From Patescibacteria group bacterium (GTDB lineage: Bacteria; Patescibacteriota; JAHJAL01): 64,000 nucleotides of DNA. The DNA lies in contig JBMORM010000010.1 in NCBI GenBank assembly GCA_049322675.1, forward strand, positions 19,028 through 83,027, written 5' to 3'. Position 1 is the first letter of the stretch. Each line of letters opens with the position of its first letter. The translations under genes and the position numbers were made by a program. A model generated the notes under the pieces. The model saw only the letters and a program-made list of their open reading frames with translations. It did not search any database and was not told the DNA's origin. Shown here in pieces: positions 191 to 57,377 of this stretch.

Positions 191-1582
191 ATGGAAAAGA
201 CTAAAAAATTTCCACGGCCAATCGGTTTTTGGCAAATGCTGGGACCAAGTTTTGTGATACTGGCACTGGGTTTGGGTAGTGGCGAGGTGATCATGTGGCC
301 ATATCTGGCCGCCAATTATGGCTTGGGGATTGCCTGGGCGGCGGTACTCGGAATCACTTTTCAGTTTTTCGTAAATATGGAAATCGAGCGATACGCTTTG
401 GTCAAAGGCGAATCGGTATTTGCCGGGTTGGTCAGGATGTTCAAATGGGCGCCCTGGTGGTTTATTGTTTCGACTTTCTTGGGATTTGCCATGCCCGGCA
501 TGATGGCGGCGGCGGCCAAAGTCTTTACCTCCTGGTTGGGTTGGGATGAGTTTAAATGGGTGGCGATTGTCGGTTTACTGTTGATCGGGTTTGTCTTGAG
601 TTTTGGAAAAACAGTTTATGGAATGATAGAAAAGATAACTCAAGTCGTCATAGTTTTGGCAGTACCGATGCTGTTTATTTTTGTGATAATTTTGGCTTCA
701 CATGCGGATTGGGCTGATTTACTAAAAGGCTTGACCGGACAGGGAAATGGTTATCGCTGGATACCGGAAAATATGGATCTGATGATTTTTCTCGGGGCGT
801 TTGCCTATGCCGGTGCCGGGGGAAATTTGAATTTGACGCAATCGATTTATATCCGGGAAAAAGGTTATGGAATGGGAAAATACGCCCAAAAAATTGGTGG
901 CTTGTTTATGGGGGCATTAAAACAACAAAAGGTGAAATTGGCGGGGGAAGATTTTGCAGTCAATAAAGAAAATCTGGCAAATTTCCGGGAGTGGTGGAAA
1001 AGGGTCAACTACGAGCATGCATTGGTTTTCTGGTTTATCGGCGGGGTAGGAATTTTGTTGTTGATGATTTTGAGTTATGCCACGGTCTATGATCTGGGAA
1101 GTAACGACCAGAGTATCAACTTTGTCATCAGCGAGGCTGGGGTAATCAAGCAAATTTTGGGCGTCAACTGGGCGGGATTGTTTATGGTGGCCGTGGCAAT
1201 AATGTTGTGGCAGACCCAATTGGGAGTTTTGGATTCAACCTCCCGCATAATGTCGGAAAATTACGCTTTGGCGATATTGGACAAAAATGAAGAAGGTAAG
1301 GTTAATATGTCTAAAATTTATTTTACCTTTTTGTGGACACAAATTGTGGTGGGAATCGTGCTGTTTGTTTTGGATATCAAAGAGCCGAAAACTCTGTTGG
1401 TGGTGGGAGCGGTTATCAATGCGGTGGCAATGTTTGTTCATGTGGGCATGGTCAATTGGATGAACTGGAAGGTATTACCAAAAGAAACACAGGCAACTAT
1501 TTTTAGAAAAATCGTCATTGGGGGAATATTTTTGTTTTACGGCATTTTTGCCACGGTAACTTTGGGAAGTAAGATTTTTTAA
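191..1582 (+). CDS. Polytopic membrane transporter, Nramp-like (divalent metal transporter family, divergent)
   Basis: 463 aa with about 10-11 hydrophobic helices. The N-terminal segment GPSFVILALGLGSGEVIMWPYLAANYGLGIAWAAVLGITFQFFVNMEIERYALVKGES parallels the Nramp TM1-TM3 layout (GPGFL...DPGN...LLW...), but the canonical DPGN motif is replaced. Confidence 0.55.
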   Translation: MEKTKKFPRPIGFWQMLGPSFVILALGLGSGEVIMWPYLAANYGLGIAWAAVLGITFQFFVNMEIERYALVKGESVFAGLVRMFKWAPWWFIVSTFLGFAMPGMMAAAAKVFTSWLGWDEFKWVAIVGLLLIGFVLSFGKTVYGMIEKITQVVIVLAVPMLFIFVIILASHADWADLLKGLTGQGNGYRWIPENMDLMIFLGAFAYAGAGGNLNLTQSIYIREKGYGMGKYAQKIGGLFMGALKQQKVKLAGEDFAVNKENLANFREWWKRVNYEHALVFWFIGGVGILLLMILSYATVYDLGSNDQSINFVISEAGVIKQILGVNWAGLFMVAVAIMLWQTQLGVLDSTSRIMSENYALAILDKNEEGKVNMSKIYFTFLWTQIVVGIVLFVLDIKEPKTLLVVGAVINAVAMFVHVGMVNWMNWKVLPKETQATIFRKIVIGGIFLFYGIFATVTLGSKIF

Positions 1583-1594: not shown

Positions 1595-3340
1595 ATGGAA
1601 AATAAAATCTGTCGGCAGTGCGGAATAAGTTTTATTGTTTCTGACGATGATTTGAAATTTTTGGAAAAGATATCGCCGGAATTTACCCCTCCTTCGCTTG
1701 AAGCTTCGGCGAGGCAGGGAAAAAAGTATCTGATCCCCTCCCCGACTTTGTGTCCGACTTGCCGATTGCAAAGAAGATTGGCGCATCGCAACGAGAGAAA
1801 GCTTTACAAAAGAAAGTGTGATGCGACCGGAAAAGATATTGTTTCTTTGTATTCTCCCAACAAGCCCTACAAGGTTTTTGATCAAGAATATTGGTGGAGC
1901 GATAAATGGGAGGCGATGGATTTTGGTCAAGATTATGATTTTTCCCGGCCGTTCTTTGAGCAATTTAAAGAACTTTATGATCGGGTGCCAAAGTTGAATA
2001 TCATCAATTCCGGGAGCGAGAACAGCGAATATACCAACCTGGCGGCCTACAATAAAAATTGTTACATGATTGTGGAGAGTAGCAACAATGAGAATTGTTA
2101 CTATGATTACTGGATTCAATTGTCAAAAAATTTGGTTGATTCTTGTTATGCTCACCAATCGGAGATTGGATATTGGAACTCGGATATTCGGGAGGGGTAT
2201 AATTTGCAATTTTGCCGCAAGGCGATAAATTGCCGAGATAGTTTTTTTCTGGAAGATAGTGTCGGGTGTAAAAATTGTTTTGCCGGCACAAATTTACACA
2301 ATAAGGAATATTACTTATTTAATCAGCCGGCGAATAAAGAGCAATTTGAGGAAACGTTGCAAATTTGGCAACAAGGAAATCAGGAGGAGAGGAGAGCTTT
2401 GTATGAAAAAATAAATAAGTTTTTTAGTGAGCAACCATTAAAGGCCGGTAGGATAGTTAATTCGGAAAATTGTGTTGGCGACTATATTTCCGACAGCAAA
2501 GATTGCTATATGTGTTTTGACGCGAGTGAAAGCGAAAGCTGCCGTTATTGTTCTGACGTAATGCGTAATGTAAAAGAGGCGATGGACACTTCGACGGCTG
2601 GTTTAGATTGTGAATTGATGTATGAATGTTTGAATACGGCGATCAATGTTTACAAAATGGCTTTTACCAATGTCTGCTGGACCAATTTGAAAAATGTTTT
2701 ATACAGTATGTATTGCTACAAATCCGAAGATATTTTTGGTTGTGTCGGCTTGCGCGACCATAAACAATACTGCATTTTGAATAAGCAATATACGAAAGAA
2801 GAATATGAAAGACTAATACCAAATATCATCGGACATATGATCTCAACTGGTGAATGGGGAGAGTTTTTTCCGATGAATGTCTCGGCTTACGGTTATAACG
2901 AAACTGTAGCACAAGATCATTTTGTTTTAACAAAAGATGAGGCCGAAAAATTGGGGGCAAACTGGGAGGATGGAGATTTTACACCGAAATATGATGGTGA
3001 AGTTTATAAGCCAAAGCCAATCGACTTATTCCAATTGAAAAATAATCCCCAAGCACAAACAGAAATTGATCTCTGTTTGAAAGGAATAATAAAATGCGAG
3101 AAATCAGGGCGACCTTTCAAGATTTTGCCACAAGAACTGGCTTTTTATATTGAAAATAATATTGAATTACCCAAAATTCATCCGGATGAGAGACATTTGG
3201 AGAGAATCAATAATAGGCATCATTACAAGTTGGAGAAAATTAATTGTGATAATTGCGGGCAAGAAATATCTACTTCTTTACCAAAGAATATTGGTAGAAA
3301 AATATATTGTGAGGAATGTTGGCAGAAATCTTTTTTGTAG
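1595..3340 (+). CDS. Cys-rich protein with N- and C-terminal zinc-ribbon-like CxxC pairs and internal NC/SxxC repeats (paralog A)
   Basis: 581 aa. The N-terminus has CRQCG...CPTCRLQRRLAHRNERKLYKRKC and the C-terminus CEKSG...CDNCG...YCEECW. The centre carries about 20-aa repeats rich in N-C and S-x-x-C. It is a clear paralog of 6329..8107 (same N-terminal CxxC..RNER..YKRKC..YSP and C-terminal ELAFY..RH..YCEEC blocks). Confidence 0.75.
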   Translation: MENKICRQCGISFIVSDDDLKFLEKISPEFTPPSLEASARQGKKYLIPSPTLCPTCRLQRRLAHRNERKLYKRKCDATGKDIVSLYSPNKPYKVFDQEYWWSDKWEAMDFGQDYDFSRPFFEQFKELYDRVPKLNIINSGSENSEYTNLAAYNKNCYMIVESSNNENCYYDYWIQLSKNLVDSCYAHQSEIGYWNSDIREGYNLQFCRKAINCRDSFFLEDSVGCKNCFAGTNLHNKEYYLFNQPANKEQFEETLQIWQQGNQEERRALYEKINKFFSEQPLKAGRIVNSENCVGDYISDSKDCYMCFDASESESCRYCSDVMRNVKEAMDTSTAGLDCELMYECLNTAINVYKMAFTNVCWTNLKNVLYSMYCYKSEDIFGCVGLRDHKQYCILNKQYTKEEYERLIPNIIGHMISTGEWGEFFPMNVSAYGYNETVAQDHFVLTKDEAEKLGANWEDGDFTPKYDGEVYKPKPIDLFQLKNNPQAQTEIDLCLKGIIKCEKSGRPFKILPQELAFYIENNIELPKIHPDERHLERINNRHHYKLEKINCDNCGQEISTSLPKNIGRKIYCEECWQKSFL

Positions 3341-3482
3341 GGGGCGAGTCGCGACTCGCCCGTACGATAATTAATTCGTAGGGGCGAGGTCCCCTCGCTC
3401 GACCGATGTCATAATCGAAGGATCGGACCCATGTGTCCGCCAAATGTCCTAACCGTAGGGGCGGGTTTTAAACCCGCCCGTC
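3338..3482. repeat. Cluster of GC-rich REP-like palindromes (GTAGGGGCGAG...CTCGCCC type), 3-4 units
   Basis: The units are tagggggcgagtcgcgactcgcccgtacga, gtaggggcgaggtcccctcgctcg, ggacccatgtgtccgcc and gtaggggcgggttttaaacccgcccg. Each is a perfect or near-perfect hairpin. The same ordered cluster recurs at 6097..6276, and the gene's stop codon TAG lies inside the first unit. Confidence 0.85.
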
Positions 3483-3611
3483 AATAACATAAAAATTAAA
3501 TAATTGTATTCATTGCATTCAATGCAATTACATTTTAAAAAATAGCCTTAAAATTAAAAAATATAATTCGATTCAAGGAGATCTGTTTAAGAAAATGGTA
3601 CATCTGATTAT

Positions 3612-3693
3612 TTTTTCTTTCTGGATCCTGGATATTGGAGCGCCGTGCCTCGCCGAGCAGGCGGGGATTACCTTCCAGTTCCAGGATGACACA
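3612..3693. mobile_element. Partial (right-half) copy of the ~125-bp double-hairpin MITE-like element
   Basis: ctggatcctggatattggagcg...ccttccagttccaggatgacaca matches the right hairpin and terminal inverted repeat of the full copies at 8110, 18991, 19831, 38550, 46460 and 54810. Confidence 0.7.
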
Positions 3694-3763
3694 ATTTGGA
3701 TAACGCAACTAAAAAATATTAAGTATAATAAAGGCAGAATTTAATTATTAATAACGTAAAAAT

Positions 3764-6079
3764 ATGAGACAAAAATGGGTGGGAGGGGTTTTGGCTTTTT
3801 TTGTATTTAACCTGGCAATGATCAATTTGCCGGTAGCGACGGCGGCAGCGGAATATGATTATCAGTGGGTGAGCCAGTCGGCTTATCCGACGATAAATTT
3901 GGGTGAGACAAAAGAGCTGTCTTTAAAAATTAAAAACACCGGTAGTCAAACCTGGAAACGTGATGGTAATAACGCCGCACATCTCGGGACCAGTCGGCCG
4001 AAAGATCGCAATAGCGGCTTTAGTGCAAGTAATTGGATTGCCGCCAATCGATCGGCAAAATTGATTGAGGAATCGGTGGCGCCGGGAGCAGAAGGAAATT
4101 TTGTTTTTTCGATTGCGCCAGATGATTCAATGGTGGTTGCGGGCGGTTGTTATGACGAATATTTTACACCGGTAATCGAAAACATAACTTGGATGAAAGA
4201 TGAGGGAATTTTCTGGAAGATTTGCGTAACAAATTCGGCGACTACTTCTGATAATGCTTATACCAATTTCAAGGACAAAGCGGATTTTGATAAATATTTT
4301 GAACAGGCGGAAAAAATATATGGCGACGAAACTCCTTTATACAAAGGCGTCTATGATTACATGGGAGACGCGGCCCCAGGGCAACCGATTGTTGGCAATG
4401 GGGAAAGTGACTCTCGTTATTCTAGCACCAATGTCCAATACAGCGGGATCGATGAGCCGGATATTGTAAAAGTAAATGAAAAAAATATTTTTTATTCTCA
4501 CTGGCCGTATGTAGTTTATGACGAAAAACCAATCTCGAGTGAGACGGATTTTGTTCCACCGATGCAAACGGGAGAAACCAAGATTATCAATGCTCAACCG
4601 GTGAATGATTTAAAAATTAGCGGCAAAATTGGACAACAAGGTGATATGCTGCTGGATGGCAATAATTTGATAGTATTGGCTTATGATGCGGTATATGGTT
4701 ATGATGTGTCGGATGCGACCAATCCGATTGAAAAGTGGTCTTATCATTTCAAAGAAAATACCGGGTATTCACAAGCTCGATTGTACAATCACCAACTATA
4801 TCTTTTAACTACCACTTGGACATACTACGACCGACTTTGCCCAATGCCGATTGCCGAAGGTGTCGAGGTCCGATGTGCCGATATTTATCATCCGACTTCA
4901 ATAATTGACAGTGATCAGTTTTACAATTTTCAACAAATAAATCCGGAAAATGGGAATATTGAAAAAACCGTTTCCTTTGTCGGGGCGTCCTACAATTCGG
5001 CCTTTATGATGTCAGAAAACAATGCTTATTTGGCTAATACGATTGAGCCGGATTATTCGATTTTGTTGGTTGATTTTCTCGATCAAAATCCGACCGTGAT
5101 GCCGGAAGATTTGAAAAATAGAATCAGAACGATCAATGGTTACGAGATAAGCCGCTATTCCAAACAGACGGAGATTTCCAACGCAATTATGGATTATCAA
5201 TATTCTTTGGATGAAACTACTCGTGCCAATTGGGAAAATAATATCAATCAAGCTTTGAAAAGTTACGTGCAGGCCAATGCGACCAAGATCAGCCGCACAC
5301 AGATTGTTAAAATTGGTTTAAATAGTTTTGGTTTGGATGCCGTCGGACAGGTGCCGGGAAGTTTGTTGAGTCAATTTTCACTGGACGAAAGCAATGATTA
5401 TTTGCGAGTGGCTTCCACAGTTGATGTCAATTGGTGGTTTATGTGGTCTAGCAATGTAAGCAATGATACTTTTAGCCAGGTAACGGTGTTGGACAATAGT
5501 ATGCAAACGATCGGACAAATCAGTGATCTGGGTCAAGGCGAGAGAATTTATTCGGTGCGATTTGTCGGAGACAATGCCTATGTGGTAACTTTCAAGGAAA
5601 TTGATCCGTTTTATATTATTGATTTGACCAATCCGACTCAACCGGTCAAGGCAGGAGAATTGAAAATCCCCGGGTACTCATCTTATCTCCATCCGATCTC
5701 GGAAAATTTAATACTGGGATTGGGAATGGAAGATTCCAAATTGAAATTGGCTTTATACGATGTAAGTAACGCCAATAATCCGATTGAAAAATCAAAATAC
5801 TATCTGGAAAATACCTGGTCGGAAGCACTTTATGACCATCACGCTTTTTTGAATGACCTCAAACATCAGATTTTCTTCCTGCCCGGCAGCAATGAAGGTT
5901 TGATCATATCCTATGCCAACGGTCAGCTGGAATTGAAAAAGAAAGTGTCCGATTTTTATGCTTCCAGAGCGGTTTATATCAATGATTACCTCTATTTGTT
6001 GGGACAAAATGAAATCAAGGTGCTGAACGAAAATAACTGGTTGCAGGTAAATGAACTGGACATTGCCGCGTTTGGTTGA
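3764..6079 (+). CDS. Secreted protein: signal peptide, Ig-like (NBR1-FW-type) N-terminal domain, C-terminal beta-propeller domain (PF09826-like)
   Basis: 771 aa. The signal peptide is MRQKWVGGVLAFFVFNLAMINLPVATAAA. The N-terminal domain (..LSLKIKNTGSQTWKRDG..RPKDRNSGFSASNWIAANR..) is homologous to the N-terminus of 13981..16140. The C-terminus carries the YSVRFVGDNAYVVTFKEIDPFYIIDLTNPTQP...LLG motif, a hallmark of the secreted bacterial/archaeal beta-propeller domain family. Confidence 0.8.
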   Translation: MRQKWVGGVLAFFVFNLAMINLPVATAAAEYDYQWVSQSAYPTINLGETKELSLKIKNTGSQTWKRDGNNAAHLGTSRPKDRNSGFSASNWIAANRSAKLIEESVAPGAEGNFVFSIAPDDSMVVAGGCYDEYFTPVIENITWMKDEGIFWKICVTNSATTSDNAYTNFKDKADFDKYFEQAEKIYGDETPLYKGVYDYMGDAAPGQPIVGNGESDSRYSSTNVQYSGIDEPDIVKVNEKNIFYSHWPYVVYDEKPISSETDFVPPMQTGETKIINAQPVNDLKISGKIGQQGDMLLDGNNLIVLAYDAVYGYDVSDATNPIEKWSYHFKENTGYSQARLYNHQLYLLTTTWTYYDRLCPMPIAEGVEVRCADIYHPTSIIDSDQFYNFQQINPENGNIEKTVSFVGASYNSAFMMSENNAYLANTIEPDYSILLVDFLDQNPTVMPEDLKNRIRTINGYEISRYSKQTEISNAIMDYQYSLDETTRANWENNINQALKSYVQANATKISRTQIVKIGLNSFGLDAVGQVPGSLLSQFSLDESNDYLRVASTVDVNWWFMWSSNVSNDTFSQVTVLDNSMQTIGQISDLGQGERIYSVRFVGDNAYVVTFKEIDPFYIIDLTNPTQPVKAGELKIPGYSSYLHPISENLILGLGMEDSKLKLALYDVSNANNPIEKSKYYLENTWSEALYDHHAFLNDLKHQIFFLPGSNEGLIISYANGQLELKKKVSDFYASRAVYINDYLYLLGQNEIKVLNENNWLQVNELDIAAFG

Positions 6080-6096
6080 TAAAAAATAATATCATC

Positions 6097-6276
6097 GTAC
6101 GGGCGGGTAAACCCCGCCCGTACGATATCAATTGTAGGGGCGAGGTCCCCTCGCCCGACGTCAATCCGTAAGGGCGGACCCATGTGTCCGCCCTTTTTTG
6201 TTGGAGATTACAAAATGATACAATTGATTTATTGATTATTAATGAATTGTAGGGGCAGGTCATGACCTGCCCATCA
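6097..6276. repeat. REP-like palindrome cluster (duplicate of the 3338..3482 cluster)
   Basis: The units are cgtacgggcgggtaaaccccgcccgtacga, gtaggggcgaggtcccctcgcccg, gggcggacccatgtgtccgccc and gtaggggcaggtcatgacctgccc. The unit order matches the 3338 cluster, and it is followed by the same aaaaattaaataat tract. Confidence 0.85.
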
Positions 6277-6328
6277 AAAATGTAAAAATTAAATAATCGC
6301 ATTTTGAATTGTATTTTGATTAAATAAT

Positions 6329-8107
6329 TTGAATTTTATGGACAAAGCCGATCAATTGATTTTGGAACAATTAAATAAAGAAGTGCCTCATGAGCGGACT
6401 TGTCGGGTGTGTGGGGGGGAATGGAAAATTGAACAGGATGATTTGATTTTTTTAAAAAAATTTATTGTGCCGGTTCCAAAAATATGTCCGAGCTGCAGCA
6501 TGCGGCAAAAATTGGCTTGGCGTAATGAGCGAGTTTTTTACCGACGAAAATGCAGTGCAACAAGTAAAGAAATTGTCTCAATTTATTCTCCAGACAAAGA
6601 TTATCAAGTTTTTGATAAGGATTTTTACGCCAATGAAAATAACTGGAATCCCTTGGACTACGTAATGAATTACGATTCGGCAGAGAGCTTTTTTGTCCAG
6701 TTCGCTCAACTGATGAAGTTGGTACCTTATGCTAGTCTAATCACGGTAACTAACAAAGCGGATAACTGCGAATACGTCAATCATGGTGGTTGGAGTAAGA
6801 ATTGTTATATGATTTCGATGGCAGCCTACAACGAAAACTGCCTTTTTGGTAAAAATATTATGCATAGTCGCGATTGTGTTGAAAATTATAATATTAATAA
6901 ATGTGAAAGTTGTTACGAAAATATAAATGGCTTGAATAATAATAATTGTCAATTTCTCTACAATTCACAGGATTGTTTCGATTGTCATTTTTCGGCTGAA
7001 CTTAAAAATTGCCAGAATTGTTTGCTGTGTTTTAATTTGCTTGATAAAAAATATTGCGTGCGGAACAAACAAGTAACACATGAAGAGTTTGAACAGGAGA
7101 GACAGCGATTACAATTTACTGAATTGAAAGCAGAGTTTTTTCAGATGAGGGCCAGACAAGTTGTTAAGTTTGCTAATATCGTCAATTCGGAAAATTGTTC
7201 GGGTGACTACATTAATAATTCCAAAGATAGCCTGTATTGTTTTGGGGTGGAAGGATATGAAAGTTGTAAATATTGCTTTGATGGCGCCGGCGGATTATTT
7301 GATTGCTATAACATTTATTCCAGTGGCAATAAAGCCTCGCTGGAATATAATTCATTGGCAGCTCCTGGATCATATAATGTGATTTGTTCCAGTGCGGTGG
7401 GAAATAATTCACAGCGGATTGGTTATAGTTTGCACTGTTATGGCTGCTCAGATATTTTTGGTTGTATAGGTTTGAAGAATAAACAGTACTGTGTTTTGAA
7501 TAAACAATATTCGAAACAAGAATATGAAAGAATAGTCGAAGAAATAAAACTTGATATGCTTTCAAGAGATGAGTACGGAGAATTTTTTCCGGCAAATATA
7601 AGTTGGTTTGGTTACAATGAAACAATTGCTCAAGAATATTTCCCTCTAAATAAAGAGGAGGCCCAAAAACTTGGTTTCAAATGGAGTGGTTATGAGGCAG
7701 AAGGTAAATTTGACGGTCCATTTTATGAGCCATTGGAAATAAAAGAATATTTTAATGAACAAAAAGCGAAAGAATTATTGGCTGGAATTTTACAATGTGA
7801 AGTAACCGGAAAACCATACAAAATAATGGGGCCGGAGTTGGCTTTTTATTTGAAACATAATATTCCGATTCCTAAACGTTCGCCGAATCAACGGCATAAA
7901 GATCGGATGGCGTTGAAGAATCCGTATAAGCTTTGGCATCGACAATGTATGTGCGAGGGACAATTGACAATTAACAGAAATCAATTAACAGGGGAAAATG
8001 GGTGTCAGCATCAAGGCAGGTGTATAAATGAATTTGAGACAACTTATGCGCCGGAGCGGACGGAGAAAGTTTATTGTGAGGAGTGTTATCGGAAGAGTGT
8101 TTTATAA
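6329..8107 (+). CDS. Cys-rich zinc-ribbon repeat protein (paralog B of 1595..3340)
   Basis: 592 aa. It shares with 1595..3340 the N-terminal CxxC...CPSC..RQKLAWRNERVFYRRKC..IVSIYSP block, the internal NC/SxxC repeats, the KQYC(V/I)LNKQY(S/T)K(Q/E)EYER block, and the C-terminal ELAFY...RH...VYCEECYRKS. Confidence 0.75.
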   Translation: MNFMDKADQLILEQLNKEVPHERTCRVCGGEWKIEQDDLIFLKKFIVPVPKICPSCSMRQKLAWRNERVFYRRKCSATSKEIVSIYSPDKDYQVFDKDFYANENNWNPLDYVMNYDSAESFFVQFAQLMKLVPYASLITVTNKADNCEYVNHGGWSKNCYMISMAAYNENCLFGKNIMHSRDCVENYNINKCESCYENINGLNNNNCQFLYNSQDCFDCHFSAELKNCQNCLLCFNLLDKKYCVRNKQVTHEEFEQERQRLQFTELKAEFFQMRARQVVKFANIVNSENCSGDYINNSKDSLYCFGVEGYESCKYCFDGAGGLFDCYNIYSSGNKASLEYNSLAAPGSYNVICSSAVGNNSQRIGYSLHCYGCSDIFGCIGLKNKQYCVLNKQYSKQEYERIVEEIKLDMLSRDEYGEFFPANISWFGYNETIAQEYFPLNKEEAQKLGFKWSGYEAEGKFDGPFYEPLEIKEYFNEQKAKELLAGILQCEVTGKPYKIMGPELAFYLKHNIPIPKRSPNQRHKDRMALKNPYKLWHRQCMCEGQLTINRNQLTGENGCQHQGRCINEFETTYAPERTEKVYCEECYRKSVL

Positions 8108-8109
8108 AT

Positions 8110-8341
8110 TTCAAACTCTTTGAAACTCTTAGAAACACTTACAAACTCTTTTAAACTGTGCCGGATGTCACTTCGGAGCCGGAAGTGTAATCATATTCCG
8201 ACATCTAGAATCCATTTCGATATTTTTTTCTGGATCCTGGATATTGAAGCGGATTACCTTTCAGTTCCAGGATGACGACAGTCATTTTTTTGGTTTTTAA
8301 ACGTTTTAAAGAGTTTGTAAGGGTTTATAAGAGTTTGTATT
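8110..8341. mobile_element. Full-length MITE-like element: ~125-bp double-hairpin core (8158..8284) flanked by ~35-bp terminal inverted repeats (AAACTCTT-containing)
   Basis: The left TIR is caaactctttgaaactcttagaaacacttacaaactcttttaaac and the right TIR is gtttaaaagagtttgtaagggtttataagagtttg. The core has two hairpins (ggagccggaagtg...ccgacatctagaatcc and ggatcctggatattgaagcg...cagttccaggatgac). No ORF is present. The same architecture is found at 46460..46735. Confidence 0.8.
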
Positions 8342-8411
8342 TTATCCCCCCCCGTTTGCTACTGTTTGTTAGGTTTGTTATGTTTATAATATTGATTATT
8401 AATTAAAATAT

Positions 8412-10172
8412 ATGTTTCGAACACATACTTGCGGGGAGTTAAATAAAGAAAATGCCGGCCAAAAAGTAACTCTGTCCGGTTGGGTCAATAAAATGCGTAA
8501 TTTTGGCGGGTTGATATTTGTTGATTTGCGGGATCGTTATGGGATTACTCAGATAAAAATCGAACCGGAACAGGCGGAATTGGTTGAGTTGGCCAAGGAG
8601 ATTGGGAATGAATATGTGGTAAAAGTGGAAGGGACGGTGGGAACGAGACCCGGCAAGGAAGGAAATAAAAATATGGCGACGGGTGAGATCGAAGTAGTAG
8701 CAGAGAAGATGGAAATACTAAGTCAGGCCAAAGTGCCGCCGTTTGAGATTTTTGCGACGGACAAAGAAGAGCCGGCCGAGGAGTTGCGTTTGAAATATCG
8801 GTTTTTGGATTTGCGACGGGAGAAGATGCAGTACAACATTGCCTTTAGAGCCAAAGTGATTCGAATGATTCGAGATTTTATGGACGAACGCGAGTATATC
8901 CATATTGAAACTCCGATTCTCACCTCGTCTTCGCCGGAAGGGGCGCGGGATTTTTTGGTTCCTTCTCGTCTGCATCCGGGAAAGTTTTATGCCCTACCCC
9001 AGGCGCCGCAGCAATTTAAACAATTGTTGATGGTGGCCGGATTTGATAAATATTATCAGATTGCCGCTTGTATGCGCGATGAAGATCCGCGAGCGGATCG
9101 CTCGCCGGGGGAATTTTACCAGCTCGACGCGGAAACAAGTTTTAAGACTTCCAAAGAATTTCAAGACGAGATGGAACCCATGTTTATCCAATTGACAGAG
9201 AAAATGGCCGGGAAAAAAGTGAAAGAAAAACCATTTCCGCGAATTCCGTATATTGAAGCACTGGATAAATATGGCTCGGACAAACCGGATTTGCGTTATG
9301 AAATGGCCTTGATTGATCTGACTCACTGGGCCAAGGAGACTGATTTTAAAGTTTTCAATAGCGCGGATTGCGTCAAAGCTTTGGTAGTAGATGGAGCGGA
9401 CAAATTGTCGCGCAAAGATATTGATACTGATTTGGGTGAACTGGCTAAAAAAATGGGGGCGAAAGGTTTGGCGTGGTTGAAATACAATGATGGAAAGTAT
9501 GATGGCGGTATTGCCAAATTTTTTAATGAGAAACAATTGACTGAGTTGGCGGAAAAATTGAAACTGACCAATAATCAATTAATTCTTTTTGTAGCCGATG
9601 AATATTCTGTGGTTATCGAATCTTTGGGTAAAGTCAGAAATAGAGTGGCGGAAAAAATGAATTTGATCGATCCCGACTTGATTGCCTGGGCCTGGATTGT
9701 TGATTTTCCGATGTATGAAAAAAATAAGCAAACCGGCAAGATAGATTTTTCTCACAATCCTTTTTCGATGCCCCAAGGCGGGATGAAATCGTTGGAAAAA
9801 TTGGATCCATTGAAAATCGTGGCCGATCAATATGATGTGGTTGCCAACGGATTTGAGATGGCATCCGGAGCGGTGAGAAATTATAATCCGGATATTTTGC
9901 ATAAAGTATTTAAAATCGTCGGTTATGGACCGGAAGTTGTCAAAAAGAAATTTGGTGGAATGTTGAACGCTTTTTCTTACGGCGCGCCACCGCACTGTGG
10001 TTTTGCCTTCGGGATCGAGAGAATGACAGCGATTTTGTTGGGATTGAATCAAATAAAAGACGTTGTCGCTTTTCCAAAAAACAATCAGGCACAGGATTTG
10101 CTCATGAACGCTCCGAGCGAAGTGAGCGATGAACAGTTGAAAGAGTTGGGGATTGAGATTCGGAAAAAATAA
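8412..10172 (+). CDS. aspS: Aspartyl-tRNA synthetase
   Basis: 586 aa. Class II aaRS signatures: N-terminal OB fold ([26 protein letters not shown]), [83 protein letters not shown], and C-terminal [24 protein letters not shown]. Confidence 0.95.
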   Translation: [586 protein letters not shown]

Positions 10173-10296
10173 AATATTACTCTTACAATACAAGAAGATC
10201 CTTGAAAAATATGTTTTCGAGGATTTTTTTATTGACCAATAATATTTTTTTGTCTAAACTAGGCTTTGTGACATTTTTTATTTATTCAAAATATTT

Positions 10297-10758
10297 ATGA
10301 AAATTGGCTTGGAAAATAATTATTCGGATGAAGAAGTTGGAACGGAAACTGAAAAAATCGACAAAAGAAAAAAACATATGGGTATGAGTCTGGGAAATAC
10401 CTGCCATTATATTTCGATTGAAGAGAGATTGATGCAAAGGAGTTTATTGAAACCTACCCCCTATCAACTGGAATTGGCGGAAAAATTGGGATTGTCTCCA
10501 GAAACTTACAACAAAATGAATCGACAACAAATGCAGACTTTTTTAACAAATGTAATTCAGGATTCTTTTCGGGAAAAATTGGGTCAAAAGAAAATATATG
10601 TCAGGCAAGAAGTAATCGACGAATATGGCAATCGAGGTAAAGTTTATTCGATAAATTATATTAGCCGTATTCTACGAATAGAATATATTGTTGAAGGCAA
10701 GAAAAAATATCGGCGAATCACCTATCAGGATATTGATAAACTGAGTCTAGTAAAATAA
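10297..10758 (+). CDS. Hypothetical protein
   Basis: 153-aa ORF followed by a strong terminator. No recognisable motif. Confidence 0.45.
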   Translation: MKIGLENNYSDEEVGTETEKIDKRKKHMGMSLGNTCHYISIEERLMQRSLLKPTPYQLELAEKLGLSPETYNKMNRQQMQTFLTNVIQDSFREKLGQKKIYVRQEVIDEYGNRGKVYSINYISRILRIEYIVEGKKKYRRITYQDIDKLSLVK

Positions 10759-10762
10759 TTTC

Positions 10763-10795
10763 TAAAAACCCCGCTTTTTAGGCGGGGTTTTTTGC
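10763..10795. terminator. Bidirectional rho-independent terminator between convergent genes
   Basis: aaaaaccccgcttttttaggcggggttttttg is a GC stem (ccccgc/gcgggg) flanked by A-run and T-run on both sides. It sits between the 3' ends of 10297..10758(+) and 10822..13824(-). Confidence 0.8.
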
Positions 10796-10821
10796 AGGGT
10801 AAAAAAATCGAGGGGATGGGA

Positions 10822-13800
10822 TTAACTTATTTTTTCAACAGCGATCTGATCAATCGAGATATCGGTTTGGCCGTAGGTAAAGACGCGATATTCCATGGTG
10901 CCGGTGGCGGTGCGGGTAAAGTTGATGGTTTTTTCGGTAAAGCTGACGCCGGCAAAATCAGATTGGGTCAAATCCAGATAACTATACAAGCCATCGCCGC
11001 CGACATTGACGGCTTCGATTCTGGCCAAATTACCGGAAGCCGAACCTTCGTTTTTGATGCGGAAGGTGGCTTGATAATTACCGGGAGTTTGATCGGTGGT
11101 GTACGGGCCGTAAACTATGTGACTGGCACCTTCGTAAGCAAAAGCTTTGACGAAAATATCTTGATTGTAATTGTCTTTATAAACTCGGCCGATACCAATA
11201 TTTAGATCTTCAGCTTGATAGATTTCAAAGTCCGGGTTTTTCTTTCTGATCATGATATTGTCAATCATGATATCTGCTACATCAGTAAAATACACGCGGT
11301 ATTCCATCGTCCCACCGGTACCATGATGGAAGTCCAAGGAAAAATTTTGCCAACCATATGATTCGCCAAAATTTCGACCGAGGATTTCACGATAAGCAAA
11401 AGGACTGTTGCCGCCAGGATTATAAACGTCGATTTTGGCGACAGTCAGATGAGTTTGGTTGTCGCTGGAAGACATACGGAAGGTAATTGAGTAATCTTGA
11501 TTATCCTCGAGGTTGTCAGAATATGGACCATAAACCATATATCCCGCATTGTCATCACCGATTAAGGCTTGCCTGGCTTTCCCACCACTGTAATACATAT
11601 TTGGGGCGACAGAGCCCGTTTGACTCAACAAATCTTCCGCTTCGTAACTGAAAAAAGTATTGTCACCCAAAGCAATGATATTTACGTAATCAAGATAAAC
11701 AAGATTGTAGTCACTGTTTCCATAATTATAAATTCGATATTCCAAAGTATCGTTATCATAACAATTGAAATATACTCCAAAATCTTCATATTGATCTTGA
11801 TAAACAAAATCACGGGGTTTTATGGTGCGAGAAGATGACAATTCCGGATGTTGATGATTGAAAACTTCCAAACGGAGTAAATCTTCATTTGGGAAGTTGT
11901 TTTCAACTTTCAAGCGGAAAACCGCGCGATATTGAATATTGGTATTGCGATCGGAGGCGTAGGGGCCGTATTGGACGTAGCCTTGGTCATCCCAATTGAC
12001 TTGAACGGCGACTTTTTCGGAAGCATTTTCGTCATAGATCAATTTACCGGCTTGTCGGTACAGATCTTCACTTTGATAATTGACGTTATAGTCCGGGTAG
12101 AGCAGACTGGTCTCGGTAAAATCAGCGGTAATATCGGTTAATCCATAAGTATAGACGCGATATTCAATCATGCCCAAAGATTTTTTGCCAAATTTTAGAA
12201 AGAAATCTTGATAAGTATCTGAAAATTCAAAATCGGTTCCTTTAATAGAGAAATATTCCCATTCATTGGGATCGCCGGTGTTGACCACTTCGATCCGGGC
12301 GACAACGTCCGAGGTGGAATTGTCTGAGGTTTTCAGATTAAATTTGGCCAAATAATTGTTGTCGATATTATCGTATCCGACATATGGTCCGTATTGAATA
12401 AAACCGGGGCCGTCGGCCACCGTGGCTTGAACGACTTTGCCATTGGAAGCGTGCAGATCTTTGACTACACTACCAATTTGGTGATACAAATTTTCACTTT
12501 CATGTTTGCCTTCTATACTGCCGAAGCTTTGATCTTTTTTGATTTGACTTAAAGCAGATTGAACATTGAGACGGCCATAGCCATAGTATTGATCCCAAGT
12601 TTGCCCGTTCATATTATTTACTTTGTCGGCCGAGGAGATCAGATAGTTTTTGATTTGCTGATTGGTGAGGTTTGGTTGAAAACTCAGTAATAAAGCGGCG
12701 GCACCGGCAACATGGGGAGCGGAAAAAGAAGTGCCACTATAATACACATAAGACTGGTCGCTATCATTGTAAGCGGTAAAAACGGAAATACCGGGAGCCA
12801 CCAAATCCAACTCTGGACCATAATTGCTGAAATATGTCAGATTGTCATCTTGATCCACAGCGCCGACAGCCAATACTTGATGATAAGCGGCGGGAAAGCG
12901 TACACCGGCGGAATCATTTCCGGAAGAAGCAACTACCACCACACCGTGATTATCGGCGTATTCAACAGCATAACGGAGGGAAGAATAGTCGTAATATGTA
13001 CCCAAACTCAAATTGATTATTTTGGCACCATTATCTGTGGCATAATACATGGCTTGAGTAACATCCCAGAGATCACAACTGCCAGCGAAATTACATACTT
13101 TTAATGGCATGATTGTCGCCTGCCAATTCATACCGGCCAAACCAAGATTATTGTTGGTATTGGCGGCGATCACCGAGCTAACGCCCGTGCCATGACCATA
13201 GTCATCGGCGGGATTATTGTTGTCGAAAACATAGTTGTAACCTTTGACGTCGTCAACATAGCCATTGTTGTCGTCATCGATATTGTTGTCGGGAATTTCG
13301 TCTTGATTGGTCCAAGATAGTCCTTGCAAATCTTCATGAGTAAACAAAAGACCGGTATCAATCACGGCAATGACCATATCTTGGTTACCTTGAACTTCAT
13401 CCCATACCGTAGGAACAGCCACGTTACGCAGGTTCCATTGGCTGGATAGATAGTAGGTGTCATTGGGGGTGGTAGCCTGTAGATCCAAGACGCCATTGGG
13501 TTCGATTTGGTCGGCACCAAGCAAATTTAGACTATTGAGATCAATTTGGTTGTCGGCTCTTTGTTTATTATTGGTATCGGTTGGTAAATTTTTGATTAAA
13601 ATATAGCCATCTTTGCCGACTTCTATCTGACTACTTTCCAAGTGATTATTGATCAGAAAATTTTCCAGACTAATAGAATCAGAAAGTTTAACGATAATTC
13701 CACGAGAAATATCACTGACTTTGGTTTCCGTTTTTGTTTGACCAAGAGCCGGAGAAACAAAAGAAAAACCAGCGACAGCGAGACAGAGGAAAAGGCCGGA

Positions 13801-13824
13801 AGCGAACCATTTATTTCCTACCAT
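10822..13824 (-). CDS. Secreted subtilisin-like serine protease (peptidase S8) with five tandem ~120-aa C-terminal repeats
   Basis: 1000 aa. Signal peptide MVGNKWFASGLFLCLAVAGFSFVSPALG. Catalytic triad motifs VIAVIDTGL (Asp), DYGHGTGVSSV (His) and YYSGTSFSAPHVAGAAALL (Ser). Five C-terminal repeats follow the pattern YQAEDL...GYVQYGPY...A(V/T)FR(L/I)K...LARIEVxN. Confidence 0.9.
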   Translation of the reverse strand: MVGNKWFASGLFLCLAVAGFSFVSPALGQTKTETKVSDISRGIIVKLSDSISLENFLINNHLESSQIEVGKDGYILIKNLPTDTNNKQRADNQIDLNSLNLLGADQIEPNGVLDLQATTPNDTYYLSSQWNLRNVAVPTVWDEVQGNQDMVIAVIDTGLLFTHEDLQGLSWTNQDEIPDNNIDDDNNGYVDDVKGYNYVFDNNNPADDYGHGTGVSSVIAANTNNNLGLAGMNWQATIMPLKVCNFAGSCDLWDVTQAMYYATDNGAKIINLSLGTYYDYSSLRYAVEYADNHGVVVVASSGNDSAGVRFPAAYHQVLAVGAVDQDDNLTYFSNYGPELDLVAPGISVFTAYNDSDQSYVYYSGTSFSAPHVAGAAALLLSFQPNLTNQQIKNYLISSADKVNNMNGQTWDQYYGYGRLNVQSALSQIKKDQSFGSIEGKHESENLYHQIGSVVKDLHASNGKVVQATVADGPGFIQYGPYVGYDNIDNNYLAKFNLKTSDNSTSDVVARIEVVNTGDPNEWEYFSIKGTDFEFSDTYQDFFLKFGKKSLGMIEYRVYTYGLTDITADFTETSLLYPDYNVNYQSEDLYRQAGKLIYDENASEKVAVQVNWDDQGYVQYGPYASDRNTNIQYRAVFRLKVENNFPNEDLLRLEVFNHQHPELSSSRTIKPRDFVYQDQYEDFGVYFNCYDNDTLEYRIYNYGNSDYNLVYLDYVNIIALGDNTFFSYEAEDLLSQTGSVAPNMYYSGGKARQALIGDDNAGYMVYGPYSDNLEDNQDYSITFRMSSSDNQTHLTVAKIDVYNPGGNSPFAYREILGRNFGESYGWQNFSLDFHHGTGGTMEYRVYFTDVADIMIDNIMIRKKNPDFEIYQAEDLNIGIGRVYKDNYNQDIFVKAFAYEGASHIVYGPYTTDQTPGNYQATFRIKNEGSASGNLARIEAVNVGGDGLYSYLDLTQSDFAGVSFTEKTINFTRTATGTMEYRVFTYGQTDISIDQIAVEKIS

Positions 13825-13980
13825 ATGATTTTTTTAATAAATAATATTGGATTAAATATAACAGATGGTTCTCTTTTGTCAATTTGGGGGCTTGTTCTCG
13901 CATTTTGTCTTTTTGGGGACAATTGACAAGACTATCATTTTTGAGACACACTAAAAGAAATAAAATAAGAGGGAGAGTAT

Positions 13981-16140
13981 ATGGAGAAAAAAGTTTGGAG
14001 TGGGGTCGGATTGGTGTTATTTACATTGGCGATTTTCGGACAAACCAGTCTGGTACAAGCGATGAGTGATTACGATTATTCGATTTCTCAAAAGTCGGAC
14101 AATCCAATCGTAAAACAAGGGGAAGAAGTAATCTTGTGGGTGAAAATTTTGAATACTGGAAATGCCACTTGGTATGGCGACCGGGCCAATGAACATGATA
14201 CTTGTCATACAGATGAAAACGGGGAAATTTATTGCATGGGAGCTTTGGTGGAGCCTTTGCGATTGGGAACTGTTCGTCCGACGGATAGAAACAGCGGGTT
14301 TTTTACGCAAGACAATTGGATAGCATCCAATCGAGTCCACAAAGCCGATGAAGAAGAAATAATGCCGGGCGGAGTGGCTTCTTTCGGTTTTTACGCGAGT
14401 GTCCCTTATGATATGAACCCGGGAATTTACCGAGAATGTTTTGCGCCGGTAGTTGAAAATACAACCTGGATGGGAGACAAGGGTATTTGCTGGGATATCA
14501 ATGTCGTGGATAATCCGGAAGAAAAATCCTACAAAGCTGATGCGATCAATGATTATGACACTAGTTATATTGAACTGGCGCCGGGAGAACAAAAGAAAAT
14601 TACCTTGAAGGCCAAAAATACCGGCACGGAAACTTGGACAAGAAGTGGACAATATCCGATTCATCTGGCAACAGATAAACCGAAAGATCGTGTAAGCGAT
14701 TTTTATGATAAAAACTGGTTAAGCGAAAATCGTTTGACGATGCTAAATGAAGAAAATATCAAACCGGGAGGGTCGGGCAGTTTTTCATTTACTTTGACCG
14801 CCCCCGTCAAAGCGGAGATCGGTGATGAATATTATGAATATTACCGTTTGGTTGCCGAGGGCAAACAGTGGTTGGGTTCTTCGGATTCTTTGGAAGCCTT
14901 TGGTTGTGGCGGCAATAAGTTAGGTGAGAAAATGGCTTATACTCAGTGTGCCGGATATTACGACGGTTTTATCGTAGTCGTAAAGATAGTTGACGACGAA
15001 AGCAACATTGAGACAAATGTCGGAGAAGAATTTACAATAGAACTGGATTCCAATGGTACCACCGGTTACGCCTGGGATATAGTCGCTCAACCCGATAAAA
15101 ATATTATCGAACTTGTTGATTCCGGTTACAGAGACGAGTGCCCAGTTGATCTAACCGGTTGCGGTAATCCGCAATTTTGGACTTTTAAAGCTTCAAAAGA
15201 GGGGAAAACCCAGTTTGAAATGCAATATCGACGCAGTTGGGAAACGGATATCGAGCCTTTGCAGACCAAGAAATATAATGTTTTGGTATTGAGCAAACTT
15301 GAAGCTCAGGAGAATCTGAAAGAAATGGCGGAAAATTTGACGGCGGTAAAATCATTGGAATACAATGGTGAATTCAAGATGTCCAGTGAGGATGAAAAAA
15401 TTGATATGGACATTGATTTTAGCGGCGGAACTGACGAAAATAATATCAATAATCCGTTGGGATATTTTTTGGTTGGTTTCAATTTGGTTAATGCGGATGA
15501 AGATTTGAAATATGCCGGTGACTTGGAATGGCGAACTATCGATAACATCGATTATCTCAAATTGGATTATCAAAGCGAGGTGGAAAATCCTGAGATTAAA
15601 AAGTATCTGGATGTGATCAATGATCAATGGATCAAAATGGACAAGGAGACGGATGTCGAGGATTTTGATCTGGGAATGTTTAATGAAGAATTGGGCAATT
15701 GGCAGGACAAGTTGACCGACGAACAACAGGAAAAAATCAAAGAACTCAATCAAAAATATCAAATCATGAAGGTTTCCGAGGTGTTGGCCGATACGACGGT
15801 AGATGGAGTAGCAGTTTATCATTATCGTTACATGATCGACGTAGCGGAGATGGAACAAATGATCAACGAACTGGATCAGGTGTTGTCGCCGGAGTTGAAC
15901 CCGTATCGCAATCCGTCGATGGACGAGGTAAAAAATCTAACGGGCGAGATTTGGATTGGAAAGACTGATTTACTGCCCTACAAAATGACGGTGGAAATGG
16001 ATGAAATGATGGAAGCCAGTGATGCAACGATTGATTTTACAATGTATTTCAAAAATTTCAACCAACCACTGACCATTGAGACTCCCGCGACAGCAAAAAC
16101 TATTGATGAGATTGCCGAGGATATGGAGAAGATTGAGTAA
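13981..16140 (+). CDS. Secreted protein: two Ig-like (NBR1-FW-type) domains, a chagasin-family (I42) peptidase-inhibitor-like domain, and an acidic C-terminal region
   Basis: 719 aa. Signal peptide MEKKVWSGVGLVLFTLAIFGQTSLVQA. The N-terminal domain is homologous to 3764..6079 (..ILWVKILNTGNATWYGD..RPTDRNSGFFTQDNWIASNR..). The central IVVVKIVDDESNIETNVGEEFTIELDSNGTTGYAWDIV matches the chagasin/I42 (G-x-x-F-x-I-x-L-x-x-N-x-T-T-G-Y-x-W) signature. Confidence 0.75.
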   Translation: MEKKVWSGVGLVLFTLAIFGQTSLVQAMSDYDYSISQKSDNPIVKQGEEVILWVKILNTGNATWYGDRANEHDTCHTDENGEIYCMGALVEPLRLGTVRPTDRNSGFFTQDNWIASNRVHKADEEEIMPGGVASFGFYASVPYDMNPGIYRECFAPVVENTTWMGDKGICWDINVVDNPEEKSYKADAINDYDTSYIELAPGEQKKITLKAKNTGTETWTRSGQYPIHLATDKPKDRVSDFYDKNWLSENRLTMLNEENIKPGGSGSFSFTLTAPVKAEIGDEYYEYYRLVAEGKQWLGSSDSLEAFGCGGNKLGEKMAYTQCAGYYDGFIVVVKIVDDESNIETNVGEEFTIELDSNGTTGYAWDIVAQPDKNIIELVDSGYRDECPVDLTGCGNPQFWTFKASKEGKTQFEMQYRRSWETDIEPLQTKKYNVLVLSKLEAQENLKEMAENLTAVKSLEYNGEFKMSSEDEKIDMDIDFSGGTDENNINNPLGYFLVGFNLVNADEDLKYAGDLEWRTIDNIDYLKLDYQSEVENPEIKKYLDVINDQWIKMDKETDVEDFDLGMFNEELGNWQDKLTDEQQEKIKELNQKYQIMKVSEVLADTTVDGVAVYHYRYMIDVAEMEQMINELDQVLSPELNPYRNPSMDEVKNLTGEIWIGKTDLLPYKMTVEMDEMMEASDATIDFTMYFKNFNQPLTIETPATAKTIDEIAEDMEKIE

Positions 16141-18875: not shown

Positions 18876-18968
18876 CAAATTTCCAATTCTCAATTTTCAA
18901 TTTCCAAACGATATTTTGTTGGGATATTAGGAAAAGATATTAAACAAATTTTTGGAATTGAAAATTAG
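18876..18968. repeat. AATTTCCAA/TTGGAAATT heptad-repeat dyad element (family 2)
   Basis: tttccaattctcaattttcaatttccaaacgatattttgttgggatattaggaaaa...tttttggaattgaaaatt gives a left arm of TTCCAA-type heptads, a central (A)TTTGTTGG, and a right arm of GGAAAT-type heptads. Confidence 0.7.
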
Positions 18969-18990
18969 TTATTGTATTTCAAATCAAGGC

Positions 18991-19116: not shown

Positions 19117-19167
19117 GAAAGAGTTATTAAACATTGAAAATTTAATGAAATTTGGTAGTTTCCAGTA

Positions 19168-38545: not shown

Positions 38546-38549
38546 AGAT

Positions 38550-56774: not shown

Positions 56775-57377
56775 ATGCGAATAAATGCCAGAAAAACAAT
56801 CCGTTTGCCAAATTATGATTATTCATCACCCGATGATTATTTTGTGACGATTTGTACGAAGGATCGGGAATGTTTGTTGGGAAATGTGATTGATGATGAA
56901 ATGGTGTTGAATAAATACGGGAAAATTATTGAACAATATTGGTTTGATTTACCCAATCATTATCCCAATATCATATTGGATGAATTTGTGGTGATGCCCA
57001 ATCATGTGCATATGATCATATCAATCGTAGGGGCGGGGTCTCCCCGCCCTTCCACGGTTTTGCCCCGCCCCTCCATGAATCAAAACGCAATCCGAAACAT
57101 TAAACCGATTCACCAAATAAACGACAATTGTGTGAGGGGCGAGGAAACCTCGCCCCTACGAAAAATACGAAAAATAACGTTGGGCAATATTGTTGCATAT
57201 TTTAAATATCAAACAACCAAACAAATAAACAAAATTTTGTGCAATATTGGTCATAAAATCTGGCAACGGAATTATTTTGAACGGATCATAAGAAATGAAC
57301 GCGAATTGAACAAAACCCGGGAATATATTCAAAACAATCCATACAATTGGCCAAACGATCGAAATAATAATTTATAA
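56775..57377 (+). CDS. IS200/IS605-family Y1 (HuH) transposase of the REP-associated tyrosine transposase (RAYT) type, carrying an in-frame REP insertion
   Basis: 200 aa. The HuH motif is MPNHVHMII. The catalytic-Tyr helix is WQRNYFERIIRNERELNKTREYIQNNPYNW (compare the IS200/RAYT consensus WQR.YY-H.IR.E.-L....YI..NP). Between the two, about 45 aa (GAGSPRPSTVLPRPSMNQNAIRNIKPIHQINDNCVRGEETSPLRKIRK) are encoded by REP DNA (57027..57160). Confidence 0.8.
   Translation: MRINARKTIRLPNYDYSSPDDYFVTICTKDRECLLGNVIDDEMVLNKYGKIIEQYWFDLPNHYPNIILDEFVVMPNHVHMIISIVGAGSPRPSTVLPRPSMNQNAIRNIKPIHQINDNCVRGEETSPLRKIRKITLGNIVAYFKYQTTKQINKILCNIGHKIWQRNYFERIIRNERELNKTREYIQNNPYNWPNDRNNNL
57027..57160. repeat. REP units inserted in-frame inside the RAYT coding sequence
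   Basis: gtaggggcggggtctccccgccc ... ccccgcccctcc ... gaggggcgaggaaacctcgcccctacg. No stop codon in the gene's frame. Confidence 0.8.

Follow-up and report, generated by a model that had tools for sequence, protein, structure and literature searches.

Two related cysteine-rich genes lying on either side of a gene for a secreted propeller protein raise the questions of what the two proteins are, how they came into this arrangement and whether they have anything to do with the protein encoded between them. The locus belongs to a 64,000-nucleotide stretch of DNA from a Patescibacteria group bacterium (contig JBMORM010000010.1, positions 19,028 to 83,027), hereafter referred to as the window, in which the genes for an Nramp-family divalent metal transporter, the first Cys-rich protein (pA), a 771-amino-acid (aa) propeller protein, the second Cys-rich protein (pB) and AspRS follow one another on the plus strand. 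The explanation considered best overall, with a probability of about 0.55, is that pA and pB are old paralogs of a family organised in arrays, that the propeller gene was inserted between them by an event mediated by repetitive extragenic palindromes (REPs), and that the two proteins may serve as zinc-stabilised scaffolds or adaptors. The adaptor or scaffold role is the weakest step of this explanation and is proposed with low confidence.

The two Cys-rich open reading frames (ORFs), which an initial annotation of this DNA had taken for paralogs, are indeed so related: pA (581 aa, 29 Cys; 1595..3340, plus strand) and pB (592 aa when read from the TTG at 6329, 35 Cys; 6329..8107, plus strand) align over their full lengths with 37% identity (E 2e-128). 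The conserved blocks described there are all present in both proteins, namely the N-terminal CxxC...CPxC..RNER..Y(K/R)RKC block, the KQYC(I/V)LNKQY(T/S)K(E/Q)EYER block and the C-terminal ELAFY...RH...YCEEC block. Translation of pB probably starts at the ATG at 6338, since the ortholog alignment begins at pB residue 4. No third copy of the family was found by tblastn in the 64-kb window. The Nramp gene (463 aa; 191..1582, plus strand; NCBIfam NF037982, E 9e-89) provides the upstream context, with a gap of only 12 nt to pA, and is probably co-transcribed with it, while the AspRS gene (8412-10172, plus strand) lies downstream of pB.

Searches of pA and pB against Pfam, NCBIfam, PADLOC and PHROGs yielded nothing beyond matches below threshold to treble-clef or LIM fingers, at the very C-terminal end, and the same scan of all 68 members of the family alignment likewise returned finger matches only (PF23477 in 35 and PF13451 in 21 of the 68, at E<0.01). 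The scores of pA were 21.4 bits against Pfam and 19.4 bits against TIGR04272, and that of pB was 14 bits, the cut-offs being 27 and 36 bits; the relatives P0006, P0025 and P0099 carry precomputed PF23477 hits above the cut-off. The view that the two proteins belong to no nameable family is thus upheld, both being below the curated thresholds in all four libraries. Single-sequence and profile searches of the PDB sequences gave LIM-type finger matches only, and no description of the family was found in the literature.

The family itself is far from small. A word-indexed search found 7,569 of 8,000 scored candidates to be significant, all of them annotated as hypothetical and originating from Patescibacteria, Gracilibacteria or Berkelbacteria, and nearly all of the 120 matches listed were full length (about 530-640 aa). 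An exhaustive profile search of 1.84 billion representatives identified 5,749 clusters (50% identity), of which 2,484 reached E<=1e-30; of the 150 matches listed, all save a handful were 545-600 aa long and aligned end to end. At least 596 loci were located in the GTDB species genomes, under the labels Peribacteria, Peregrinibacteria, Gracilibacteria, Abawacabacteria, Paceibacterota, Liptonbacteria, Saccharibacteria and WS2. pA and pB are therefore anciently diverged members of a very large, uniform and uncharacterised family that is almost confined to the Patescibacteria. The family has neither a name nor a curated model nor a relative of solved structure. It is structurally unusual, and it merits a curated family model as well as experimental work.

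Two copies carry labels from other lineages. One full-length member, 38% identical to pA, occurs at 10001-11614 of locus L021, on a 3.26 Mb contig assigned to Bdellovibrionota (JAXLVP010000001.1), with no TrmB or ATPase neighbours (see below), and is a candidate for horizontal transfer into a predatory bacterium. Another copy (L016) comes from a bin labelled Micrarchaeota, which is possibly mis-binned. A phage or plasmid origin of the family was also considered and is ruled out by the absence of tblastn matches in 50,697 phage and 72,556 plasmid records and by its near-absence from IMG/VR, where 2.9 million contigs gave one marginal partial match.

The organisation of the family genes in related genomes was examined in 80 loci, comprising 78 from other organisms, the closest available relative (L001, an ENA contig of 97.6 kb) and the window itself, in which ORFs were called and clustered. 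These hold 259 family genes, typically in same-strand tandem arrays of two to seven; in seven loci the family gene is fragmented under genetic code 11, so that the arrays there are under-counted. Genetic code 25 was tried for the family loci and rejected, the tblastn scores being no better than under code 11. Identity within an array is 35-50% everywhere, and the arrays therefore consist of old, maintained paralogs and not of recent amplifications. In several metagenome-assembled genomes of about 1 Mb the family copies of the different loci total at least 7-8, and single-copy genomes also exist. The retention of so many old copies of a 65-kDa protein by many tiny patescibacterial genomes represents a sizeable investment. 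The closest relative, whose Nramp protein is 79% identical to that of the window, carries six paralogs within 20 kb, with the Nramp gene (L001 15442-16833) between two of them.

Two kinds of genes recur next to the arrays. A TrmB-like regulator (PF01978, about 250 aa), mostly divergent, is present in 31 of the 78 loci from other organisms, and in 22 of these 78 loci the array is accompanied, on its own strand, by the gene for a VirD4/HerA-like P-loop ATPase of about 747 aa, the gap between the two being 16-140 nt in more than half of the cases. A canonical cluster of a divergent TrmB gene, three to six paralogs and the ATPase of about 747 aa was observed in L014 (5732-20738), L028, L036, L062, L068, L070 and L076, and the module of TrmB plus paralogs is present two or three times in L009, L038 and L061. 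No conserved small partner ORF was found inside the arrays; the inserted ORFs are miscellaneous genes of toxin-antitoxin (TA) type, such as HicA, nucleotidyltransferase/MNT-like and RelB-like genes. Examples lie between family genes at L001 1719-2338, L008 14013-14573 and L017 5931-6296 and 16546-16983. As such genes often stand between family genes, the arrays evidently tolerate the insertion of accessory genes.

The ATPase matches T4SS-DNA_transf, TrwB_AAD_bind, TraG-D_C and DUF87/HerA and, more weakly, TraD, CedD and the PADLOC mad8 and HerA models. Its scores of 32 bits for PF02534 (cut-off 20.1), 22.4 for PF10412 (20.5) and 24.6 for PF12696 (22) exceed the cut-offs, whereas those for NCBIfam TraD and CD1115 are far below them. 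With the type IV coupling proteins (T4CPs) VirD4, TraD and TrwB it shares the FtsK/HerA-type P-loop domain, but in most copies examined it has no N-terminal membrane anchor. In most copies the 19-aa hydropathy peaks at about 1.0-1.2, no segment rises above about 1.3 in 10 of 12 copies, and none has a hydrophobic segment at the N-terminus; VirB-like neighbour clusters were not seen in the 80 loci. Passages of PMC12102498 describe type IV secretion systems (T4SSs) as widespread and important in Patescibacteria, count 5,713 VirD4-like T4CPs in these bacteria with only 148 near virB4, and consider exaptation of such proteins possible. The passages of that article concerned with VirD4, coupling proteins, effectors, zinc, cysteine or tandem arrays make no mention of an association between such an ATPase and the present family, and literature searches found no account of it; the link of orphan VirD4-like ATPases to the family appears to be undescribed. 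These neighbours connect the family with a regulator dedicated to it and with the orphan VirD4-like ATPases of the Patescibacteria.

An AlphaFold2 (AF2) model of pA, built with the alignment of 68 sequences, is compact and confident (pLDDT 86, pTM 0.89) and, combined with that alignment, shows an architecture of six parts. A basic N-terminal treble-clef module (residues 1-130, isoelectric point 8.6), with zinc knuckles at C6, C9, C53 and C56 and an Arg-rich helix CR.QRRL..RNER.LY.RKC, leads into solenoid 1 (about 131-245), a helical hairpin (248-279) and solenoid 2 (about 283-400), the C-terminal end of which carries the most conserved motif, GC(V/I)GL..K.YCILNKQYTKEEYE. These are followed by an acidic helical region (401-495; GEWGEFFP...SPFGYNET.A.EYFPL) and a basic C-terminal module (496-581) made up of a pseudo-ribbon and an intact CxxC-x17-CxxC finger (C551, C554, C572 and C575). 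The C-terminal module echoes the pattern of the N-terminal one (F.I..EL.FY...P..HPD.RH), with its first site reduced to C501; each terminal module has lost one of two presumed zinc sites. C551, C554, C572 and C575 are conserved in 95-99% of the family; in pB the finger reads C565-x17-C583-x2-C586 and its first knuckle carries an insertion. Both proteins are acidic overall, with basic ends and an acidic centre. Neither has a predicted signal peptide or transmembrane segment, and both are predicted to be cytoplasmic.

In solenoid 1 of pB the cysteines keep a strict register and lie exactly 12 residues apart (147, 159, 171 ... 243). Among 200 members nearly all Cys-Cys distances in the solenoids are divisible by 3, those of 3, 9 and 12 residues being the most frequent. 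The internal repeat is accordingly one of 12 residues and not of about 20 as had been noted earlier, and the CxxC motifs are thus stacked on successive 12-residue coils. The family consensus includes a CxxCxxCxxC stretch, and the proteins carry 29-38 Cys. It is proposed, with moderate confidence, that some of the stacked CxxC pairs of the solenoids, together with the terminal modules, may bind structural zinc. The strongest conservation lies in the non-Cys polar and aromatic motifs at residues 381-440.

The full-length model has no match in the PDB at E<=0.001 (Foldseek), and the C-terminal half has no structural neighbour there. The C-terminal finger of pA has the same CxxC-x17-CxxC spacing as the zf_Tbcl and zf_Tbcl_2 families (PF13451, PF23477) and TIGR04272, and the pattern F.I...DL.FY...P..CP.CR recurs in the N-terminal module (C6, C9, C53, C56); these treble-clef families, however, possess neither the solenoids nor the conserved 381-500 region, and the fingers make up less than 15% of the length of pA and pB. 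The second finger of LIM proteins (CRP1, 1B8T) is matched by the C-terminal finger at E 6e-4 (profile against PDB sequences), but over 30 residues only, and the match to the LIM model PF00412, which scores 17.4 bits (cut-off 22.9), covers the second-finger half (profile positions 19-58) and not the two fingers of a LIM domain.

The modelled solenoids are narrow beta-solenoids and superpose on those of the ryegrass ice-binding protein LpIBP (3ULT) and of the spruce budworm and Tenebrio-type antifreeze proteins. Identity to these proteins is 8-11%, without any family match, and they are secreted, whereas pA and pB have no signal peptide. The Cys residues of pA and pB lie on a three-residue lattice, with a CxxC in every 12 residues, and their solenoids are placed between zinc-finger and helical domains. 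Disulfide ladders are unlikely in pA and pB, since these are predicted to be cytoplasmic and not secreted, and the lattice suggests either metal sites or simply the use of Cys as a small core residue. An ice-binding role is not implied.

The REP clusters provide the evidence on how the local arrangement arose. Their occurrence at the 3' flanks of the first two genes, with the same order and the same trailing tract, is borne out: cluster 1 (3338..3510) and cluster 2 (6094..6303) lie directly 3' of the stop codons of pA and the propeller gene, each with four GC-rich hairpins in identical order, and the tract AAAAATTAAATAAT trails both (3491-3504 and 6284-6297). The hairpins of cluster 1 are H1 (3342-3361), H2 (3378-3403), a degenerate H3 (about 3420-3441) and H4 (3459-3479), and the TAG stop codon of pA forms part of the GTAG of the first REP; those of cluster 2 are H1 (6094-6126), H2 (6134-6159), H3 (6170-6195) and, after an insert of about 43 nt, H4 (6253-6272). 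Cluster 2 ends about 25 nt upstream of pB, and its H3 precedes a T-run and looks like a terminator in a scan; the clusters probably act as 3' terminator or mRNA-stabilising hairpins, a role assigned with moderate confidence. The two clusters are collinear over 85 nt (82% identity, 75 bits) and 56 nt (79%, 45 bits), whereas other REPs of the window match them mostly through single hairpins of 20-32 nt, the longest of these other matches being 40-53 nt at lower identity and not exceeding 44 bits. The clusters are hence not equally similar to REPs elsewhere in the window but are specific copies of one composite unit, as their mutual match exceeds the single-hairpin matches elsewhere. In the closest relative the composite cluster is absent and only one 35-nt hairpin matches.

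The initial annotation had proposed a segmental duplication or a REP-mediated recombination. The specifically related REP copies make a REP-associated event plausible, but a single segmental duplication does not survive the comparison of genes with repeats. If one recent duplication of a unit of gene plus REPs had produced both paralogs and their flanks, the likeness of the clusters in order and spacer sequence would be explained; the proteins, however, are 37% identical and each has its own ortholog in the closest relative (61% identical for pA and 55% for pB), the DNA similarity around pA and pB stops at the gene ends, and the clusters follow pA and the propeller gene and not pA and pB, forming direct repeats around the propeller gene that are not equivalently placed relative to the two paralogs. 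Genes that differ to this extent in protein sequence and have separate orthologs, set against repeats about 80% identical in DNA, make the REP duplication much the younger; by these divergences the gene duplication is judged to be ancient, long predating that of the clusters. The discordance refutes the single duplication, which is given practically no chance. The other idea put forward at the outset, that the cytoplasmic Cys-rich proteins are functionally paired with the secreted propeller, as toxin and immunity protein or as maturation factor and substrate, is very unlikely on the comparative data. It could draw on the common strand of the three genes here and on the fact that PF09826 is the third most frequent genuine neighbour family, with 7 of the 80 loci (the window counted) having a propeller gene at a distance of 10 kb or less, usually one to three genes away from the edge of an array. 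Yet the propeller gene is missing from the other 73 loci, including the closest relative with its six paralogs, its strand and side vary, and in the window alone among the 80 loci does it stand between two family genes. No PADLOC or toxin-domain match was obtained for pA, the propeller protein or pB, and the REP clusters bracket the propeller gene as expected of an inserted passenger.

The propeller gene is most likely such a passenger and not a functional partner, a conclusion held with moderate confidence. Its position between pA and pB on the plus strand (3764..6079) is as initially annotated, and its product of 771 aa is a secreted or anchored Beta_propel protein (PF09826, E 4e-98; 329.8 bits against a cut-off of 22.4, over profile positions 1-493 of 495). 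Near its N-terminus it has a hydrophobic stretch of signal or anchor type (Kyte-Doolittle peak 1.96, residues 6-24). Apart from its position between family genes and REP clusters, nothing unusual was detected in this member of the PF09826 family of secreted propellers of unknown function.

The genome carries an active-looking system of REPs and REP-associated tyrosine transposase (RAYT). The window contains 18 perfect-stem hairpins of the form GTAGGGGCG..CGCCCCTAC that start with GTAG and are distributed in four zones; the REP hairpins outside the two clusters are located at 52.8 kb and 56.5-60.6 kb. A gene for a RAYT-like Y1 transposase (56775..57377, plus strand; Pfam Y1_Tnp 30.7 bits against a cut-off of 23), with REPs around and in it (56541-56709, 57027-57157 and 57383-57480), is a candidate mobiliser of the REPs of the window. 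As in the REP/BIME (bacterial interspersed mosaic element) and RAYT systems of Enterobacteria and Pseudomonas, the elements are GTAG-led, GC-rich imperfect palindromes present in multiple copies at the 3' ends of genes, and the cognate RAYT gene is flanked by REPs. The present system differs in that the host is a Patescibacterium, that several copies stand in frame inside the RAYT and rlmN-like genes, and that the two clusters are composites of four different hairpins duplicated as a unit. In the RAYT coding sequence two in-frame REP hairpins encode stretches such as VGAGSPRPS. The rlmN-like radical-SAM gene (59915-61150, plus strand) contains about 250 nt of AATTTCCAA-type repeats and three in-frame REP hairpins at about 60316-60560; the ORF stays open, and repeats of intergenic type appear to have been absorbed into a housekeeping protein.

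In the reconstruction preferred here, the window would represent a two-gene remnant of a tandem paralog array, in which an old pA-pB pair was split by REP-cluster-mediated recombination or insertion that either brought in the propeller gene or duplicated the cluster around it. The local history would thus be a fairly ordinary instance of genome plasticity, in which REP/RAYT activity reshaped an old pair of paralogs. As regards function, the family proteins may be zinc-stabilised solenoid scaffolds or adaptors whose basic terminal zinc modules take hold of a nucleic acid or protein client, with specificity varying from paralog to paralog, and where the ATPase is present they may act jointly with this translocase-type enzyme under the control of TrmB. 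A bolder and rather speculative extension would regard the family, the TrmB-like regulator and a soluble, exapted VirD4/HerA-like ATPase as an undescribed system of the Gracilibacteria-class Patescibacteria that occupies at least 1% of their genomes of about 1 Mb. The solenoids would then be of a new 'zinc-ladder' type, in which CxxC motifs on successive coils jointly bind metal, and the paralogs would be specificity adaptors presenting clients to the translocase.

Several observations weigh against the overall explanation. No relative with an uninterrupted pA-pB pair was found, and the insertion is therefore not polarised; the occurrence of propeller genes in 7 of the 80 loci, together with the rank of PF09826 among the neighbours, may reflect a weak enrichment above chance. 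No homolog of known function was found for pA or pB in the library and PDB searches. The case for zinc in the solenoids is made from CxxC spacing and nothing else, and of the 29 consensus Cys positions nine are missing in pA and six in pB, which implies that the solenoid Cys are not all indispensable. No TrmB or ATPase homolog was found anywhere in the window, the closest relative has neither near its paralogs, and the partnership is therefore not universal. Loci of the Paceibacteria type hold a single copy in the order ArgRS, a 90-aa ORF, family gene and IleRS; such copies hint at a different, housekeeping role, and the organisation of array, TrmB and ATPase is therefore lineage-specific. The 78 loci, moreover, are the best-scoring distinct ones of at least 596 and are biased toward Peribacteria-like genomes, and the neighbour counts depend on crude ORF calling under code 11.

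Three other functions were weighed against the scaffold or adaptor role, and all are considered unlikely. The association with the ATPase invites the proposal that the family proteins are effectors, recognised by the VirD4-like enzyme as a coupling protein and delivered to host cells through a T4SS; the enzyme matches T4CP models and its gene comes directly after the array in 22 of the 78 loci, arrays of diversified paralogs are a typical trait of effector repertoires, and T4SSs, as cited above, are widespread and important in these bacteria. Such delivery is improbable since most copies of the ATPase are without the canonical N-terminal anchor of T4CPs and no virB genes were seen in the loci, the distance of most patescibacterial T4CPs from virB4 in the passages of PMC12102498 pointing the same way, and since tightly folded solenoids with multiple zinc ions would be poorly suited to unfolding and secretion. 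The paralogs, furthermore, are old and uniformly conserved (35-50% identity), and not fast-evolving. A part in metal handling, as zinc or iron stores or buffers, chaperones or Fe-S carriers, would agree with the abundance of Cys, the CxxC in every 12 residues and the CxxCxxCxxC stretch of the consensus, and with the Nramp genes placed 12 nt upstream of pA and between paralogs of the closest relative. The Nramp adjacency is, however, confined to the lineage of the window and that relative, tblastn finding no Nramp gene in the loci from other organisms, and could be a lineage-specific metal link or a coincidence. Many of the solenoid Cys are dispensable, as the nine of 29 consensus positions absent from pA illustrate, conservation peaks in the non-Cys motifs at residues 381-440, and the keeping of six to eight paralogs with recognisable orthologs would be unexpected for a bulk storage protein; metal handling is accordingly held to be doubtful. 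It is equally doubtful that the paralogs self-assemble into a cytoplasmic filament or lattice, with solenoids joined end to end and the ATPase assembling or remodelling it. The solenoid core does resemble the stacking folds of ice-binding, curli and bactofilin-like proteins, and the maintenance of at least 7-8 old and equally diverged paralogs in a genome of about 1 Mb would be expected of a hetero-oligomer, but both solenoid ends appear capped in the compact monomer model (pTM 0.89), single-copy genomes exist, and there is no direct evidence of oligomerisation. The architecture and the neighbour data together give a practical entry point to one of the larger uncharacterised families of the Patescibacteria.

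Other repeats surround the locus, and Rfam identified no known RNA in the intergenic repeats. Half a copy of a second intergenic repeat family, GGATCCTGGATATTGGAGCG...CCAGTTCCAGGATGACAC, lies upstream of the propeller gene (3600..3695) and belongs to the direct-repeat families D10 and D16. Downstream of pB a full copy of this second family, a nested palindromic element distinct from the REPs, occupies 8104..8345. Such elements consist of outer arms of 10-nt tandem units (AAACTCTTAG... or AATTTCCAAT...) that enclose a hairpin of about 120 nt, GATGTCATTCTGGAGCCGAAAG...CTTTCGGTTCCAGGATGACA, and were also observed at 18873-19120, 19798-19995, 38497-38737 and about 46540-46740.

Two further observations concern other genes of the window. 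An alpha-2-macroglobulin-like ORF of 1,855 aa (20004-25571, plus strand) carries a HINT/intein-type domain at about aa 1095-1224, between the bait region and the A2M domain. At 10822-16140 a secreted S8 subtilase of 1,000 aa, encoded on the minus strand, adjoins a 719-aa protein with a chagasin-type inhibitor I42 domain, and the two may constitute a pair of protease and inhibitor.

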